This document shows, piece by piece, positions 3 to 6,873 of a DNA stretch of 64,000 nt; the first letter of the stretch is position 1; every line of letters begins with the position of its first letter. Source of the DNA: an uncultured delta proteobacterium. GTDB lineage: Bacteria > Desulfobacterota > RBG-13-43-22. Position numbers and translations under genes: made by a program. Below the pieces are notes generated by a model. That model saw only the letters and a list, made by a program, of their open reading frames with translations, searched no databases and had not been told where the DNA came from. The stretch is taken from NCBI GenBank assembly GCA_963743305.1, contig CAVUPH010000010.1:64001-128000 (forward strand), in the 5' to 3' direction.

Positions 3-1427
3 TATCATTCGACGGTCAACCCCTTCTTTTTTCTGCGCGACCTCTCCGGTTTGCTGGTCCTGGCCGGAATGGGCCTGGCGGTCTGGCGGCGCTTTATCCG
101 AAAAGTCCCCCGTCTGAAAACCCATGGTATGGACTATTATGCCCTGGCCATCCTGCTTCTGATCCTGGGCTCGGGGATCCTCTTGGAAGGGGTCAAGATC
201 ACCTCTTATTCCGAATTTCTACAGATGGCGGAGGACTACGGAGCCATCGATTCCCGTTGGGAAGGGAACCAGGAATTGCAGGCCCTGGAAACCTTGTGGG
301 TGCGGCAATACGGGCTGGTTTCCCCTAACGTCAAGGGTCCTGGAGATTCCCGGGTGCTGGCCAAGGGAAAGGAAATCCATGAAATGAGTTGCCTGGAATG
401 TCATTCCGCCACCTCCTGGGCCCTTTTAGGTTATCCCACGGCCAAACTGCTGAGCCCACTGGCCCTCTTCCTGGATCGGAGGGGACTGCCCGCTATTCTT
501 TGGGTGGTGCACGTGCTGAGCTGCCTTATCGGCCTGGCCTACCTGCCCTTCAGCAAGATGGGTCATATCCTTTATACCCCCCTATCCCTGTTGATGAATG
601 CGGTCATGGACCGGGAGCGGTCCCACCCGGCCAACATCGCCACCCGGCAGATGATCGAATTGGACGCCTGCACCCATTGCGGGACCTGCAGTATCCGCTG
701 CTCGGTGGGGGCGGTCTACGAATCCTGGGGCAATGAAAATATATTGCCTTCGGAGAAGCTGCACGCTCTCAAGGCCCTGGTCCGCGGAAAGAACGTGGAA
801 CCCCGGCAGCTCAGGTCCCTCTTGGAAGGGGTCTATTGTTGTACCAGTTGTGACCGGTGTACAGTAGTCTGCCCCTCGGGAATCAACCTGAAAGAACTCT
901 GGGTCGATCTGAAAGAAGACCTGGTGCAAAGGGGTATCCCGGAACGACTGATCCTTTCTCCCTATTCATTCGCTCGCGGACTGAACCAGGCCATCCACCC
1001 CCGGAAAGAATATGAGGCACCCGTCCAACTGGCCAGGCAAGCCGTGGCCTTACCTTTTGAGGAGGGGAAAACGGCGGAGCATCCCTTGGCCCTGAGCCCT
1101 CAGGTCCCGGTCCTTCCGGTGTTTCTGCCGGACGCCCGCAATTTCGCCAACTGTTTTGTCTGTCAAAACTGTACCAATATCTGTCCGGTGGTTGCCGCCT
1201 TTGAGAATCCGGAGGAGGTCCTGGGGCTCCTCCCCCACCAGATTATGACCAGCCTGGGTCTGGGGTTGATCGATCCGGCGCGAGGCAACCGGATGATCTG
1301 GGACTGCCTAACCTGTTATCAATGCCAGGAGCACTGCCCTCAGGGGGTTATGGTGACCGATCTCCTCTATGAGTTGAAGAACCTGGCGGCCGGGAATCAG
1401 AGAGGATCGGCCGGTCTATCCGGGTAA
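3..1427 (+). CDS. 5'-truncated membrane protein: NarI/HdrE-like TM domain with a monoheme cytochrome c insert, fused to two HdrC-type 2x[4Fe-4S] domains
   Basis: Frame open from nt 3. Several TM helices with HVLSC..YLPFSKMGH (NarI/DsrM-like heme b His pattern); GKEIHEMSCLECH (CxxCH); four CxxCxxCxxxCP-type motifs (CTHCGTCSIRC, CTSCDRCTVVCP, CFVCQNCTNICP, IWDCLTCYQCQEHCP); lies directly upstream of hdrB. Confidence 0.8.
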   Translation, partial: YHSTVNPFFFLRDLSGLLVLAGMGLAVWRRFIRKVPRLKTHGMDYYALAILLLILGSGILLEGVKITSYSEFLQMAEDYGAIDSRWEGNQELQALETLWVRQYGLVSPNVKGPGDSRVLAKGKEIHEMSCLECHSATSWALLGYPTAKLLSPLALFLDRRGLPAILWVVHVLSCLIGLAYLPFSKMGHILYTPLSLLMNAVMDRERSHPANIATRQMIELDACTHCGTCSIRCSVGAVYESWGNENILPSEKLHALKALVRGKNVEPRQLRSLLEGVYCCTSCDRCTVVCPSGINLKELWVDLKEDLVQRGIPERLILSPYSFARGLNQAIHPRKEYEAPVQLARQAVALPFEEGKTAEHPLALSPQVPVLPVFLPDARNFANCFVCQNCTNICPVVAAFENPEEVLGLLPHQIMTSLGLGLIDPARGNRMIWDCLTCYQCQEHCPQGVMVTDLLYELKNLAAGNQRGSAGLSG

Positions 1428-1441
1428 GGTGGATTAGAACC

Positions 1442-2329
1442 ATGAAATTTGCGCTCTTTATCGGCTGTAACATCCCGGCCCGGGTCGTCCAGTACCTGAC
1501 TTCGGCCCGGGCGGTCCTGGACCGTCTGGGGGTCACCCTGGTGGATTTCCGAGGTTTCGGGTGCTGCGGATACCCTCTGCGGGCATTAGACCAGAATGGC
1601 TATCTCTTGTCCGCGGCCAGGAACCTGGCCATCGCCGAAAAGGCCGGGTTGGATATTCTGGCCCTCTGCAAGTGTTGTTTTGGAAGCCTGAAAAGGGCCG
1701 CCCAGGTCCTGGAGGAAAACCCCTTGCTGGCGGAAGAGGTGAACCGGTTTCTGGGCCGGGAAGGGTTGAAGTACCGAGGCGGCGGTCAGGTGAAACATCT
1801 TCTTTCGGTCCTCTACCAGGATGTGGGTCTGGAGGCCCTTCAGGGAAAAATCATCCAGCCCTATAAGGGACTGAAGATCGCCCCCCAGGTCGGGTGCCAT
1901 GCCCTCCGGCCGAGCCGGATAACCCAATTTGATGATCCCCTCCATCCGGTTATCTTCGACGCCCTGGTCCGGGCGACCGGCGCCGAGAGCCTGGATTGGG
2001 ACAGCCGGCTGGATTGCTGCGGGGCCCCCCTGCTGGGAGTCAACGACGAGGTTTCTCTGAAGCGGACGAGAGACAAGATAAAAAAAAGCCGGGAGGCCGG
2101 GGCCGATTACCTTTGTACGGCCTGTCCCTTCTGTCAGTTGCAGTTTGAGACGGTCCAAAAGAGGTCGCTCTCCTTCGAGGGAGCTGAAGAACCGCCAGCT
2201 CCCATTTTGTATACGCAACTGCTGGGAATCGCGCTGGGCCTCGACCGGAAGTACCTCTGGCCCCAGGGGGATTCCCCGGAGTTTAGCGGGCTTATTCGTT
2301 TTTCAAGTGAGGAATCAAACCATGCCTAA
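1442..2329 (+). CDS. hdrB: Heterodisulfide reductase subunit B (two CCG domains)
   Basis: FIGC, GCCG, CKCC, VGCH, DCCG and ACPFCQLQF motifs. Confidence 0.9.
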
Positions 2330-5300
2330 GGAGACCATCGGGGCGGTCCTGGTGATCGGGGGCGGTATTACCGGGATGCAGGCCGCGCTGGATCTGGCCA
2401 ATTCCGGCTATTACGTCTATCTGCTGGAAAGGTCCCCCTCCATCGGCGGGATGATGAGCCGCTTGGACAAGACCTTCCCGACCAACGATTGTGCCCTTTG
2501 AATTATCTCCCCGAAGCTGGTCGAGGTCGGCCGGCATATCAACATCGAGTTGCTTACCCTGTCCGAGGTGAACCGGATTTCCGGTGAGGCCGGGAACTTT
2601 GAAGTCCGGGTAACCCGGCATCCCCGGTATGTCGATCTGGAAAAATGCATCGCCTGCGGCCTTTGCGCTGAAAAATGTCCCCGTAAGGTAGCCAATGAAC
2701 AGGACAGTGGTTTGGGACAGCGCAAGGCGATCTATGTTCAGTATGCCCAGGCGGTCCCGCTGAAATACGTCATCGATCCCCGGGAATGTATCTATCTGAC
2801 CAAGGGGAAATGCCGGGCCTGTGAAAAGTTTTGCCCCACCGGCGCCATCCGCTTCGACGATCGGGAAAGCGAACGGACCCTGAAGGTAGGCGCCGTCGTC
2901 CTGGCCCAGGGAAGCCGGACCTTTGATCCGGCCGTTTACGATACCTTCGGTTATCAGAGCTCTCCCAACATCGTCACCACCCTGGAGTTCGAGCGCATCC
3001 TCTCCTCCTCCGGTCCCTATGGCGGCCATCTGGTCCGCCCGTCAGACGGCCGGGAGCCGCGCAAAATCGCCTGGTTCCAGTGCATCGGTTCCCGGGACGA
3101 GCATCCCGGCGCCCGAAGCTATTGTTCCGCTGTCTGCTGCACTTTTGCCATCAAAGAAGCGATGCTGGCTAAGGAACACGTCCAGGGCGACCTGGACACG
3201 GCCATCTTTTATATTGATTTGAGGACCTATGGCAAGGACTATGAACGCTACTATAATCGCGCTCGAGAGGAGCTGGGCGTCCGGTTCATCAAATCCCGGG
3301 TCAGCCACCTGGAGCCGGTCGGCGATACCGGCCGACTCCTCGTCCGCTACGTCGACGAAAGCGGCCGGCGGAGGGAGGAAGAATTCGATCTGGTCGTGCT
3401 CTCCGTCGGTCTGGGTCAGACCCCGTCCGGGGTGGAACTGGCCGGGAAGCTGGGGGTGGAACTCAACCGCCATCAGTATGCCCAGGTAAGCAGCTTCCAT
3501 CCGGTGGAGAGCGGAAGGCCCGGCATTTTTGTCTGCGGCGCCTGCCAGGCTCCCAAGGATATTCCCTCCTGCGTCGTGGACTCCAGCGCCGCCGCCGCGG
3601 GTGTCGGCGGGCTGCTCTCGGAGGCCCGCGGGTCACAAACGCGGACCCGGGAAATCCCCTCGGAAATCGACGTCCGCGGAGAAGCTCCCCGGGTGGGTGT
3701 ATTTGTCTGTTGCTGCGGTACCAACATCGCCGGCGTGGTCGATGTCCCGGCGGTGGTTGAGTTCGCCAAGACGCTGCCCGGCGTAGTCTATGCCGAGCAG
3801 AACCTTTTCAGTTGCGCTCAGGACAGCCAGGAAAAGCTGGCCCAGATCATCCGGGATCAGCACCTGAACAAGGTGGTGGTGGCGGCCTGCACCCCCCGGA
3901 CCCACGAACCGCTATTCCAGGAAACCTTAACCAATGCCGGACTCAATAAATACCTCTTTGAGATGGCCAATATCCGCAACCAGTGCTCCTGGGTGCACCA
4001 ACACCAGCCGGAACAGGCCACGGAGAAGGCCAAAGATCTGGTCCGGATGGCCGCCGCCAAAGCGGTCCTATTGCAGCCCCTGCCGGAGCCGACGCTCGAT
4101 ATCAATCAGAAGGCGCTGGTGATCGGCGGCGGTCTGGCCGGCCTGTCCGCCGCCAGGACCCTGGCCGATCAGGGGTTCAAGACCTACCTGCTGGAAAAAA
4201 GCGCGGTCCTCGGAGGTCAGGCCCGGCGGGTTTTTCAGACCTGGAAGGGCGAGGAGGTGCAGCCTTCTCTGGACGGGTTGATCGGGTCCATCACCCGGGA
4301 TGAACGGATCAAGGTGTTCCTGAATTCGCAGATAACGGGGGTGGACGGGTTTGTGGGGAATTTCAAGACCACCATCGAGTCGGAACGGGAGACCCGAGTC
4401 TTGTCCCACGGCGTGACCATCATCGCTACCGGCGCCTCCGAACTGAAACCCGATCAATATTTTTACGGTCAGGATGCCCGGGTATTAACGGGGCTGGAAT
4501 TACAACGACGGTTTATTGACGGCGATCCGGCCCTGAAACAGATCAAGACGGCGGTTTTTATTCAGTGTGTCGGCTCAAGGATCCCCGAGCGGCCCTACTG
4601 CTCCCGGGTCTGCTGCACCCGCAGCGTGAAGGGCGCCCTGACTTTGAAGGAGATCAACCCCGAAGCGCGAATATTCATCATCTATCGGGATATGCGGACC
4701 TACGGGCTGCGAGAGGACCTTTACCGGGAAGCCCGTCAGAAAGGGATTTCCTTTATACGGTATAATTTTGATCAGGGCTTGACGGCCGCCCGGGATAACG
4801 GCGCTTTGACCCTGTCTTTTACGGACACGGCGCTCAAACGGGTTATGGAGGTCCGCCCCGATCTCCTGGTGCTGGCCTCGGCCATCGTTCCCGAAAAGGA
4901 GAATCCCCTGGCCCAGTTTTATAAGGTACCGCAAAACGCCGATGGGTTTTTCGTCGAGGCCCATGTAAAACTGAGGCCGGTGGACTTTGCCACCGACGGG
5001 GTTTTTCTCTGCGGGCTGGCCCAGGCCCCCAAATCAATTGACGAATCCATCACCGAGGCCCAGGGTGCCGCGGCCCGGGCAATAGCCCTGCTCTCGGCCG
5101 GGACGATTAGCGTGACGGGCACGGTGGCCTCGGTCATCCCGGCGGCCTGCAGCTCTTGCGGAGTCTGTGTTTCCATCTGTCCCTATTCCGCCCCGTCGTT
5201 CAATGAAAAAACCGGAAAAGCCCAAATTCAAGCCACCCTCTGCAAGGGCTGCGGACTTTGTACCGCATCCTGCCGATCGGGGGCTATTACCCTTAAAGGG

Positions 5301-5345
5301 TTTGAGACCGACCAGGTCATGGCCATGATCGAATCGGCCCTCTGA
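2322..5345 (+). CDS. hdrA: Double-length heterodisulfide reductase subunit A-like flavoprotein, selenocysteine-containing (UGA at 2499-2501), ~1007 aa
   Basis: ATG 2322 ([18 protein letters not shown]) is in frame with ORF 2550-5345 across one TGA in [15 protein letters not shown], the conserved Cys position. Two GGGxxG FAD motifs, two CxGSR..YCSxVCC motifs, ferredoxin motifs. Confidence 0.88.
2516..2535 (+). promoter_or_regulatory. Putative bacterial SECIS hairpin
   Basis: GCTGGTCG-AGGT-CGGCCGGC: 8-bp stem (two G-U pairs) with an AGGU loop, starting 14 nt after the UGA. Confidence 0.75.
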
Positions 5346-5788: not shown

Positions 5789-6244
5789 ATGATTGACCTA
5801 ACTAATTTAAGAGCGATTATTATGCTGAGCTATCTGACGGACCCGATGCTGAAGAAGCTGGAAGAAGTCACCCTGATAAAAAAGTACGGGGAAAAGGAGT
5901 ATATCTTCCAGGAAGGGGAATACGCCGAGCATCTGTTTGCCGTTATCGAAGGTCGGGTCGGCATGGAGCTGGCCAAGAATCCTTCCCGGCACATAACCAT
6001 CCTGGAAGTGACCAAGGGGATGGCCTTTGGGATGGCTTCCCTGGTAGATACGGAAAACAGGAAGTATATCGGCTATGCCAAGGCTCTGGTTCCCACCCGG
6101 GTTTTCGCCTGGAAAGGAGCCGACCTGGACAAGCTTTTTATTCAGGATTATGAAATGGGCTTTTTGATTATGAAGCGGGCGGCCAATATCCTGAACCGGA
6201 GAATGGATATTGCTTTTGCCCAGTTTGTAGATATATGCCTTTGA
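5789..6244 (+). CDS. Stand-alone cyclic-nucleotide-binding (Crp/Fnr N-terminal) domain protein with no HTH
   Basis: IFQEGEYAEHLFAVIEGRV...GMAFG..SL; strong RBS GAGGAGG; 151 aa. Confidence 0.8.
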   Translation: MIDLTNLRAIIMLSYLTDPMLKKLEEVTLIKKYGEKEYIFQEGEYAEHLFAVIEGRVGMELAKNPSRHITILEVTKGMAFGMASLVDTENRKYIGYAKALVPTRVFAWKGADLDKLFIQDYEMGFLIMKRAANILNRRMDIAFAQFVDICL

Positions 6245-6329: not shown

Positions 6330-6873
6330 CTATTTCCAGGTCAACCGAGGCGAATTTCGAACCGGGATGCGCTGGTACTTAAACTGAGGATAGCCGATCA
6401 TCAAGGCTCCAAAGGCGAGATGATCCCTGGGCAGGCCCAGGGCCTCGAAGAGGGGGGGTAGGCGTTCACCGTTTTATACAAGTAGCCCGCCCCCAGTAGA
6501 CCCCTAAACCGACGCTGGTTGCATACAGGTCGAGCAGGCCCAAGGCCAGGGCAGTATCCTCGGGGCCGAAACGCCAGTTTCGGTCGGCATGAACGATGAT
6601 GAGATGGGGCGCCTTCCGACAAACGCGATCCAATCCCGCGTCCCAGGCGGCGATCACCCGGTGATAGCCCAGGGTTTTCCCTGCTTCCGGGTTTGATTCC
6701 AGGACCGCCCGCATGGCCTCCACGACCAGGCCGGCCAGCCGTTGAACTTCTTGGGGACGCGGGACCACGATCCAGTGCCACGGTTGCTGATTTCTCGCCG
6801 ACGGTGCGGAGCAGGCCACCTCCACTAGTTTTTCCAGGGTCTCCTTTTTTTGAAACGGGAGCGCGCCGATCAT
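6330..6873 (-). pseudogene. Nitroreductase family gene, truncated and frameshifted
   Basis: APSARNQQPWHW, then AGYLY and GALMIGYPQFKYQRIPVRN in three different frames; N-terminus missing. Confidence 0.75.

Follow-up and report, generated by a model that had tools for sequence, protein, structure and literature searches.

Enzymes of the heterodisulfide reductase (Hdr) type that perform electron bifurcation are treated as soluble, and their connection to the membrane is still debated. For Qmo, confurcation has reportedly been proposed. A membrane link has been put forward for MetFV-Hdr in acetogens (in the parts of PMC9430772 and PMC6895022 that were available to us). The question of how a bifurcating flavoprotein could reach the membrane is raised by a locus at the left edge of a 64,000-nucleotide stretch of contig CAVUPH010000010.1 (GenBank assembly GCA_963743305.1) from an uncultured delta proteobacterium. 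The whole analysed stretch, hereafter the window, corresponds to G000:C10:64001-128000, so that window position 1 is contig position 64001. There, a gene for a membrane cytochrome b fused to two iron-sulfur (Fe-S) domains, the second of them HdrC-like, is followed by hdrB-like and hdrA-like genes. Judged from its sequence, the fusion protein is probably a membrane protein with two haem b, one outward-facing haem c, and four Fe-S clusters. In the reading that we prefer, and to which we assign a probability of roughly 0.55, it forms the membrane part of an Hdr-type complex encoded by three genes, probably carries the haem c in a periplasmic loop, and would conduct electrons across the membrane.

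Architecture of the fusion protein

The open frame at window positions 3..1427 (+) is cut by the left edge of the window and comprises the last 474 codons and the stop codon. The complete gene occupies G000:C10:63661-65427 (L001:1161-2927), begins 340 bases upstream of the window, and encodes 588 amino acids. Codons 1–114, which lie outside the window at G000:C10:63661-64002, specify transmembrane helix 1 (TM1), a basic, predicted cytoplasmic segment with helices, and TM2 with His87 and His101. The part inside the window is organized as follows (AF2, AlphaFold2; pLDDT, predicted local distance difference test score).

3..1427 (+): 3' part of the cytochrome b/c-HdrC fusion gene (Pfam, NCBIfam, AF2 model with a mean pLDDT of 89)
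24..203 (+): TM3, a short, predicted cytoplasmic loop with four Lys/Arg, and TM4 (hydropathy, AF2 helices, Nitrate_red_gam over residues 77–180)
204..485 (+): CxxCH loop, predicted to be periplasmic, with Met189 (window 225-227) and Trp213 (hydropathy, AF2, conservation)
390..404 (+): CLECH, the putative CxxCH haem c attachment motif, with Cys244, Cys247, and His248 (motif, conservation)
486..566 (+): TM5 with His284 (window 510-512), followed by His302 (window 564-566) at the predicted cytoplasmic end (hydropathy, AF2, conservation)
657..884 (+): first 2x[4Fe-4S] dicluster, residues 333–408, SdhB/HdrD/EtfD type (Pfam Fer4_8, PDB profile, EtfD alignment)
1140..1400 (+): second 2x[4Fe-4S] dicluster, residues 494–580, HdrC-like (PDB HdrC match, TIGR03290 below its cut-off)

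Of 8000 candidates scored in a word-indexed search, 2598 were relatives with expect values (E) of 0.001 or less. Those listed, 120 in number, were all 578–621 amino acids long and were covered to 98–100%. In public annotations, such relatives appear as '4Fe-4S dicluster domain-containing protein' or 'HdrC/nitrate reductase gamma subunit'. Misassembly or a chance fusion was considered and rejected, because the fusion is present in every listed relative.

Two further sequence sets were used to evaluate conservation. An exhaustive phmmer search with residues 1–325 against 1.84 billion representatives clustered at 50% identity gave 715 matches with E ≤ 0.001, of which 112 had E ≤ 1e-30. From the 150 cluster representatives listed, the 94 with at least 290 amino acids were aligned with the query (95 sequences), and the 56 shorter ones were dropped. 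The second set, an alignment of 87 full-length sequences with 30–89% identity, was picked by length and not by the presence of the motif.

Membrane domain

Hydropathy placed five TM helices at residues 3–26, 84–106, 123–145, 158–180, and 277–297, and the AF2 model likewise has five; TM3, TM4, and TM5 are taken here as residues 122–147, 156–181, and 276–297. The Pfam family Nitrate_red_gam (PF02665) matched residues 77–180 with 28.9 bits against a cut-off of 22.9, and profile A2 matched E. coli NarI at E 5e-7, with TM5 of NarI aligned to residues 264–311. This sequence profile match supports kinship with NarI. Structural alignment of model residues 1–323 to NarI with VIA-align gave a Z of 9.6 (root-mean-square deviation (rmsd) 4.5, 175 of 217 residues), although Z values below about 13 can reflect a common arrangement of helical bundles. 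With a profile of the N-terminal domain (A4, 26 sequences), a PDB search allowing E values as high as 1 recovered neither NarI nor EtfD.

The loop at residues 27–83 contains 11 Lys plus Arg residues, the loop at 107–122 none, and the loop at 146–157 four. The N-terminus is predicted to be periplasmic and the C-terminus cytoplasmic, with loops 1 and 3 in the cytoplasm and loop 2 and the CxxCH loop in the periplasm. The predicted periplasmic location of the CxxCH loop follows from the parity of five TM helices with cytoplasmic Fe-S domains, from the positive-inside count, and from the fold common to EtfD and NarI.

Four histidine residues in or at TM2 and TM5 are almost strictly conserved. His101, His284, and His302 are each kept in all 87 full-length sequences and His87 in 86; in the 95-sequence alignment the four are kept in 85–92 sequences, and most of the remainder are truncated at the N-terminus. 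The two histidines of the TM2 pair (His87/His101) are 14 residues apart, and those of the TM5 pair (His284/His302) are 18 apart. In NarI, the TM5 haem ligands His187 and His205 are likewise separated by 18 residues, and the histidines of TM2 are 10 residues apart. The TM5 pair of SaEMO is His233/His251, as far as the accessible part of the preprint goes (10.64898/2026.08.18.745454). The earlier note on this DNA had described NarI-like TM helices with histidine ligands, and the Pfam match, the five helices, and the conserved histidines bear this out, with haem binding as a prediction; of the histidines, whose misplacement that note had regarded as a reason to abandon its proposal, the TM5 pair agrees in its spacing with both NarI and, as far as its source was available, SaEMO.

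The AF2 model calculated from the 87-sequence alignment had a mean pLDDT of 89 and a predicted template modelling score of 0.82; it superseded an earlier run on 32 close relatives with a mean pLDDT of 56. A Foldseek search with this model returned EtfD of M. smegmatis (9ojn) as the only match at E ≤ 0.001 (E 2.5e-7). EtfD was also the best solved match in VIA-align (Z 23.4, rmsd 3.6, 333 aligned residues) over model residues 1–446, i.e., the TM helices and the first Fe-S domain. According to the part of the EMO preprint that we consulted (10.64898/2026.08.18.745454), the EMO fold has five TM helices with a periplasmic N-terminus and a cytoplasmic C-terminus. In SaEMO, His87 and His251 bind the proximal haem and His233 binds the distal haem, and a second distal haem is stacked on haem bD1, facing Ala101 (same source, same part).

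The CxxCH loop

The loop between TM4 and TM5 spans 96 residues (181–276) and contains CLECH at residues 244–248 (window 390-404), with G236 upstream of the motif, as the earlier note had read it (GxxxxxxxCxxCH). Four helices are predicted in the loop by AF2 (183–194, 204–216, 230–243, and 257–273), and the CxxCH follows directly after the third.

In a spread of 32 relatives chosen from the listed matches, no substitution occurs at C244, C247, H248, M189, or any of the four TM histidines. Among the 87 full-length relatives, C244, C247, H248, M189, and W213 are kept without exception. In the 95-sequence alignment, the complete CxxCH is present in 91 sequences (C244 in 91, C247 in 93, and H248 in 94), and M189 and W213 are each present in 93. 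The four sequences lacking a complete motif comprise two out-of-frame translations (P0189 and P0237), a chimera that jumps into HdrB-like sequence (P0216), and a loop deletion (P0169). The motif is rare in the host genome as a whole, occurring in 41 of 2168 crude open reading frames (ORFs) of at least 300 amino acids, at 0.105 motifs per 1000 amino acids. Conservation of the motif and the side of the membrane on which it lies had been named in the earlier note as points that could refute its proposal, and neither does so, with the side as predicted from topology.

The second axial ligand of the putative haem c would likely be Met189. His240 could serve instead but occurs in just 61 of the 95 sequences, which makes Met189 the better candidate.

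All PDB sequence matches to residues 217–251 were haem sites of c-type cytochromes, but they were weak (E 0.013–1.4) and serve as a lead only. They included actinobacterial QcrC and ActE of alternative complex III (ACIII) at E 0.78–1.4 in a search with three of three matches of c-type. Profile A2 matched two flavocytochrome c subunits (E 0.013 and 0.035), and profile A4, with five of five matches of c-type, again reached a flavocytochrome c subunit (E 0.058). When the loop by itself was searched against the ESM Atlas, all matches were fragments from the same family, with scores of at most 0.83.

Iron-sulfur domains and the predicted contact with HdrB

The C-terminal half contains four CxxCxxCxxxC motifs with 16 cysteine residues, each of which is kept in 86 or 87 of the 87 full-length sequences, and four [4Fe-4S] clusters are therefore expected. 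The earlier note had assigned both dicluster domains to the HdrC type. This holds for the second domain (Cys498/501/504/508 and Cys549/552/555/559), which is specifically HdrC-like and matched HdrC of solved Hdr complexes at E 2.6e-20 with profile A2 and with a VIA-align Z of 10.6 over model residues 467–580. The first domain (Cys337/340/343/347 and Cys394/397/400/404), in contrast, is of the SdhB/HdrD/EtfD type according to Pfam Fer4_8 and a PDB profile. Both halves of the protein weakly match the QmoC model NF038018, which scored 59.4 bits against a cut-off of 300.

A complex of residues 1–578 with HdrB was predicted with a score of 0.84, compared with 0.01 for the best of three controls; 116 of 157 solved complexes and 2 of 215 mismatched pairs attain the mark applied to such scores. 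The runs agreed in at least 90% of the contacts, and the pLDDT of the partner was at least 86. HdrB is predicted to contact both Fe-S domains, the linker at residues 429–445, and the TM3-TM4 loop. Because HdrB-HdrC and EtfD structures are already solved, the score may reflect likeness to them and does not constitute proof.

Operon partners and gene neighbourhood

The two genes following the fusion gene on the same strand match the earlier description of an operon with hdrB and hdrA.

1442..2329 (+): hdrB-like gene, 295 amino acids, two complete CCG motifs (Pfam CCG 76 bits; TIGR03288 217.5 bits against a cut-off of 345)
2322..5345 (+): hdrA-like gene of 1007 codons when its in-frame TGA is read through, two HdrA-type flavoprotein modules (NCBIfam HdrA2 844 bits against 1100)

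The cysteines of the CCG motifs in the hdrB-like product are invariant in alignment A3. The in-frame TGA of hdrA lies at window 2499-2501, at residue 60 after FPTNDCAL, and ORF callers split the gene there into pieces of 60 and 931 codons. Among 55 related loci, 48 have TGA at the homologous codon and 6 have TGT (Cys), and the remaining one is cut by a contig end. Residue 60 (U60) is thus probably selenocysteine, a reading that rests on the conserved TGA with TGT as its alternative. A stem-loop after the TGA, sought as a selenocysteine insertion sequence, folds no better than shuffled sequences (z -0.14). Taken together, the fusion protein, HdrB, and the selenocysteine-containing HdrA appear to tie an Hdr-type enzyme directly to the membrane.

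Gene order was compared in 80 related loci from species-representative genomes. Where the sequence has room for 1.2 kb or more behind the fusion gene, which is so in 62 loci, hdrB lies 3' of it in 59 (exceptions L016, L052, and L077), and the N-terminus of hdrA follows hdrB in 48 of 52 loci (exceptions L045, L058, L060, and L066). Clustering of the flanking ORFs in the 80 loci revealed no other universal neighbour. Next to the triad, subsets of these loci contain genes for a NuoE-like protein (14), MvhD (12), or a molybdopterin oxidoreductase (10), which are input modules of the kind that soluble Hdr cores combine with; this modularity speaks for the preferred reading. Another subset has a sigma-54 activator (12). 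In loci L005, L006, L012, L024, L025, L040, L042, and L044, about 1.7 kb (L005) to 3.2 kb separate a short N-terminal hdrA piece carrying the selenocysteine from the remainder of the gene. The NuoE-like [2Fe-2S] gene found in 14 of the 80 loci suggests that an NADH module is inserted in the split hdrA.

Two adjacent genes were examined as conserved partners and dismissed: the upstream GAF-ANTAR gene (L001:169-870) occurs in 1 of the 59 loci with room, and the downstream gene for a cyclic nucleotide monophosphate-binding (cNMP-binding) protein (window 5789-6244) in 3 of the 80. A context with etfAB or glpAB was absent from the window, from the ORFs scanned with Pfam in the upstream region G000:C10:46006-63370, and from the clusters scanned for the 80 loci. 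Farther downstream, a 135-residue ORF on the opposite strand (window 6466-6873, -) matches only positions 17–139 of a 167-position nitroreductase model and may be a truncated gene.

Comparison with known systems

To judge from its sequence, the fusion protein would do the work of the membrane halves in EMO/EtfD, HdrDE, DsrMK, and Qmo and that of HdrC in HdrABC, and yet it is a full member of none of these groups. The closest likeness is to EMO/EtfD/HdrF, in which a NarI-like five-TM haem b domain and a cytoplasmic 2x[4Fe-4S] domain follow each other in one chain and, as far as the source for EMO was available, the TM5 histidines are 18 residues apart. In EMO and HdrF, however, a CCG domain is fused to this chain, whereas Pfam detects no CCG domain in the fusion protein; here the CCG protein (HdrB) is encoded by the next gene and a second, HdrC-like dicluster stands in its place. 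The 96-residue CxxCH loop between TM4 and TM5 and the second invariant TM2 histidine are further additions relative to EMO/EtfD/HdrF. The partners also differ: EMO and HdrF work with ETF or GlpAB, but the partner of the fusion protein would be HdrA. The term CXXCH is absent from the EMO preprint (10.64898/2026.08.18.745454). HdrF1-3 of Desulfobacterium autotrophicum go with glpAB/etfAB and not with hdrA (PMC2702500, in part), and a HotSeep-1 protein that joins haem c motifs to a CCG domain has a different architecture (PMC10553843, in part).

With HdrABC (5odc, 8rvu, and 7bkb), the system shares the C-terminal HdrC match, the HdrB-like and HdrA-like genes 3' of it, and the predicted HdrB contact. 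In HdrABC, however, HdrC is a soluble protein of about 185 amino acids, whereas in the fusion protein it forms the tail of a membrane cytochrome; HdrA, in addition, is doubled here (1007 amino acids). In the solved HdrABC (5odc), HdrC bridges HdrB and HdrA. QmoABC resembles the system in having a membrane cytochrome b (HdrE-like) fused to an HdrC-like Fe-S domain and HdrA-like flavoprotein partners, but in QmoC the Fe-S part precedes the membrane part, the reverse of the order found here, and Qmo lacks HdrB. To our knowledge, QmoC has no CxxCH loop. HdrDE, DsrMK, TmcBC, and HmcEF also combine a NarI-like dihaem b anchor with Fe-S clusters and a CCG catalytic site that it feeds; their anchor, however, is a separate subunit, and none of them occurs with HdrA. 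The c haems of DsrMK-, Tmc-, and Hmc-type systems are carried by other subunits (DsrJ, TmcA, and HmcA). NarI itself (PF02665, 1q16) shares the five-TM fold and the histidines of TM2 and TM5, which are bis-His haem b ligands in NarI and predicted ligands here, but contains neither the CxxCH loop nor the fused Fe-S domains of the fusion protein.

The architecture was not found described in the main texts of the full-text literature searched, as far as these were accessible, including PMC2702500, PMC10553843, PMC5109826, PMC5947623, PMC9430772, PMC6895022, and PMC13416013. Nor was a c-haem loop found described for EMO/EtfD, HdrDE, DsrMK, Qmo, or HdrABC in the accessible portions of the literature searched.

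Proposed mechanism

In the preferred reading, His87 and His302 would probably bind the proximal haem b, and His101 and His284 the distal one. His101 may belong to an ordinary bis-His distal haem site or may be the ligand of a second, stacked haem. One haem c would probably be bound covalently at Cys244 and Cys247, with His248 as an axial ligand and Met189 as the likely other ligand. Electrons could then pass from the flavin of HdrA to the HdrC-like clusters, where the path would branch to the clusters of HdrB, and on through the first dicluster, the proximal haem b, and the distal haem b to a quinone site or to the haem c at the outer surface. Flow in the reverse direction is possible. At the outer face, electrons may be exchanged with menaquinone at a site close to the distal haem, at the haem c with soluble carriers of the periplasm, or by both routes. 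On the cytoplasmic side, HdrB would contribute two CCG cluster sites, and HdrA would serve as a double, selenocysteine-containing flavoprotein whose flavin could couple the flow to ferredoxin by bifurcation or confurcation, with menaquinone or periplasmic cytochromes as the high-potential partner. Alternatively, the membrane potential may help to drive ferredoxin reduction. The analysis itself establishes the order of the domains, the conservation of the motifs, a predicted topology and fold, the order of the genes, and the presence of haem c maturation genes. Bifurcation by the HdrA-like protein is presumed from homology; haem occupancy, axial ligands, partners, direction of flow, and the substrate of HdrB are given as we infer them.

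The earlier note had proposed an electron wire from a periplasmic cytochrome c, through haem b or quinone, to a bifurcating HdrA. The anatomy of a transmembrane wire is supported, because the CxxCH is conserved and predicted to be periplasmic and four invariant histidines lie in TM2 and TM5. Input from a periplasmic cytochrome c is not supported in the same way, since no conserved cytochrome gene accompanies the operon (one ORF in 80 loci).

Weighing the alternatives

Several observations speak against the preferred reading. Neither the complete protein nor the isolated loop matched any Pfam cytochrome c family at E up to 1, the PDB matches of the loop are insignificant on their own, and polytopic membrane proteins do not usually have haem c attached within one of their loops. 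In relative P0169, the whole CxxCH loop is cleanly deleted in frame with every other domain retained, so that the loop behaves as a separable insert. The products of the partner genes score below the equivalog cut-offs of HdrB (TIGR03288) and HdrA2, and the fusion protein scores below those of HdrC (TIGR03290, 49.3 against 160 bits; NF041779, 17.8 against 350). A conserved periplasmic cytochrome neighbour was not found, a single ORF with at least three CxxCH being present in the 80 loci, and no electron-input module lies 3' of hdrA in the window, where the next gene encodes the cNMP-binding protein. Finally, dsrA, dsrB, and qmoC were not found above the family cut-offs in the 90%-complete genome. 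The usual DsrC-centred role therefore cannot simply be assumed, even though the genome contains three DsrC/TusE-like genes, and the host may not be a sulfate reducer.

The haem c could be a true entry or exit port, making the protein a quinone-independent wire between the periplasmic cytochrome c pool, and with it extracellular or interspecies transfer, and a bifurcating Hdr; a stacked distal haem pair like that of SaEMO, with His101 as a ligand, could then extend it to a four-haem b/c chain. We hold this only tentatively and regard it as rather unlikely. A quinone-only role with an internal haem c fits equally well, and we consider it doubtful to the same degree: the protein would exchange electrons with the menaquinone pool alone, as EMO/EtfD, HdrDE, and Qmo do, and the haem c, at the distal site, would tune the potential or act as a relay towards the quinone, much as the second, stacked haem does at the distal site of SaEMO, without docking of a cytochrome. 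The closest structure, EtfD, is indeed a quinone reductase, and the 80 loci lack a conserved cytochrome c neighbour. Met189 is just eight residues past TM4, and the haem c should therefore sit close to the membrane surface. In the part of the source available to us, the extra distal haem of SaEMO faces Ala101, 14 residues after His87, and the invariant His101 here is likewise 14 residues after His87, a correspondence by spacing alone. On the other hand, a covalent His/Met site resembling class I on a 96-residue loop of soluble type exceeds the known needs of a quinone site, and these bacteria possess large periplasmic cytochrome c pools (16 ORFs with at least three CxxCH in this genome).

Two further explanations seem improbable to us. 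If the CxxCH bound no haem, its cysteine pair would be joined as a disulfide in the periplasm or would hold a metal, steadying the loop of a plain two-haem b anchor, as the missing Pfam cytochrome c match, the weak PDB matches, and the existence of a loop-less relative (P0169) might suggest. A disulfide, however, needs neither the histidine after the second cysteine, kept in 87 of 87 and 94 of 95 sequences, nor the methionine kept in 87 of 87; moreover, the helix pattern G-x-x-L/I-H-x-x-x-C-x-x-C-H resembles that of class I cytochromes c, and the genome encodes a haem c maturation system. This is the system II pair on contig C13, in which CcsA (190 bits) adjoins ResB (269 bits). All 66 sampled genomes with the fusion gene carry PF01578, but the presence of haem c maturation does not discriminate, because 397 of the 401 sampled genomes of the phylum have PF01578. 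Just as improbable is the absence of a stable link to HdrA, with the fusion protein and HdrB forming a split EMO-like enzyme that has another donor while hdrA works separately. A paralogue pair of the host's own genome (G000:C10:35729-38286) has no adjoining hdrA, the N-terminus of hdrA is missing after hdrB in 4 of the 52 loci, and in some relatives the same CxxCH membrane domain continues into one dicluster and a CCG domain, as in EMO/HdrF. Against these stand the 48 of 52 loci in which hdrA does follow, and a second Fe-S domain that is specifically like HdrC, the subunit that connects HdrB with HdrA in 5odc. The preferred reading, a membrane subunit of a three-gene complex with a probable haem c, accommodates exchange with quinone as well as with periplasmic carriers.

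Paralogues and distribution

The paralogue pair lies about 26 kb upstream of the window on the opposite strand (-, L002) and consists of a 567-residue cytochrome b/c-dicluster fusion followed by an HdrB-like gene. The paralogous fusion is 43% identical, keeps the CxxCH and the methionine, and matches Nitrate_red_gam with 36.0 bits; one cysteine of its first dicluster domain is replaced (CTGCYRGNLYCP). Contig C10 is unusually rich in Hdr genes. Its region G000:C10:46006-57573 (L085:2006-13570) encodes a soluble HdrC (212 amino acids), an HdrB (305), a giant flavoprotein of the HdrL type (1498), and a 421-residue flavoprotein followed by a 655-residue protein with a terminal MvhD domain. On contig C12 (G000:C12), the C-terminal part of a 505-residue ORF with seven CxxCH matches the NarI-like domain, and an adjoining 462-residue ORF matches the Fe-S part; this ORF pair may be a Tmc/Hmc-like module with fused cytochrome c and cytochrome b. 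Among the relatives, P0130, P0144, and P0201 (711–716 amino acids) combine the same CxxCH membrane domain with one dicluster and a CCG domain in an EMO/HdrF-type architecture.

The fusion gene was found in 66 of the 401 sampled genomes of the phylum, representing 37 of 254 genera. At least 527 loci are present in species-representative genomes, including metagenome-assembled genomes labelled as ethane-oxidation partner bacteria (Eth-SRB1/2). The family is thus widespread in sulfate-reducer-like bacteria.

Implications

If a NarI-type cytochrome b does carry a c haem of its own, the NarI fold would gain a new cofactor arrangement. As the tail of a membrane cytochrome, HdrC would physically link a bifurcating flavoprotein to the pool of quinones or the periplasm. 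If the haem c is a true port, periplasmic electrons could be split, or merged with those of ferredoxin, in a single membrane enzyme. The family is common in the sampled genomes and, whatever its role, probably belongs to the routine machinery with which the anaerobic bacteria that carry it conserve energy.

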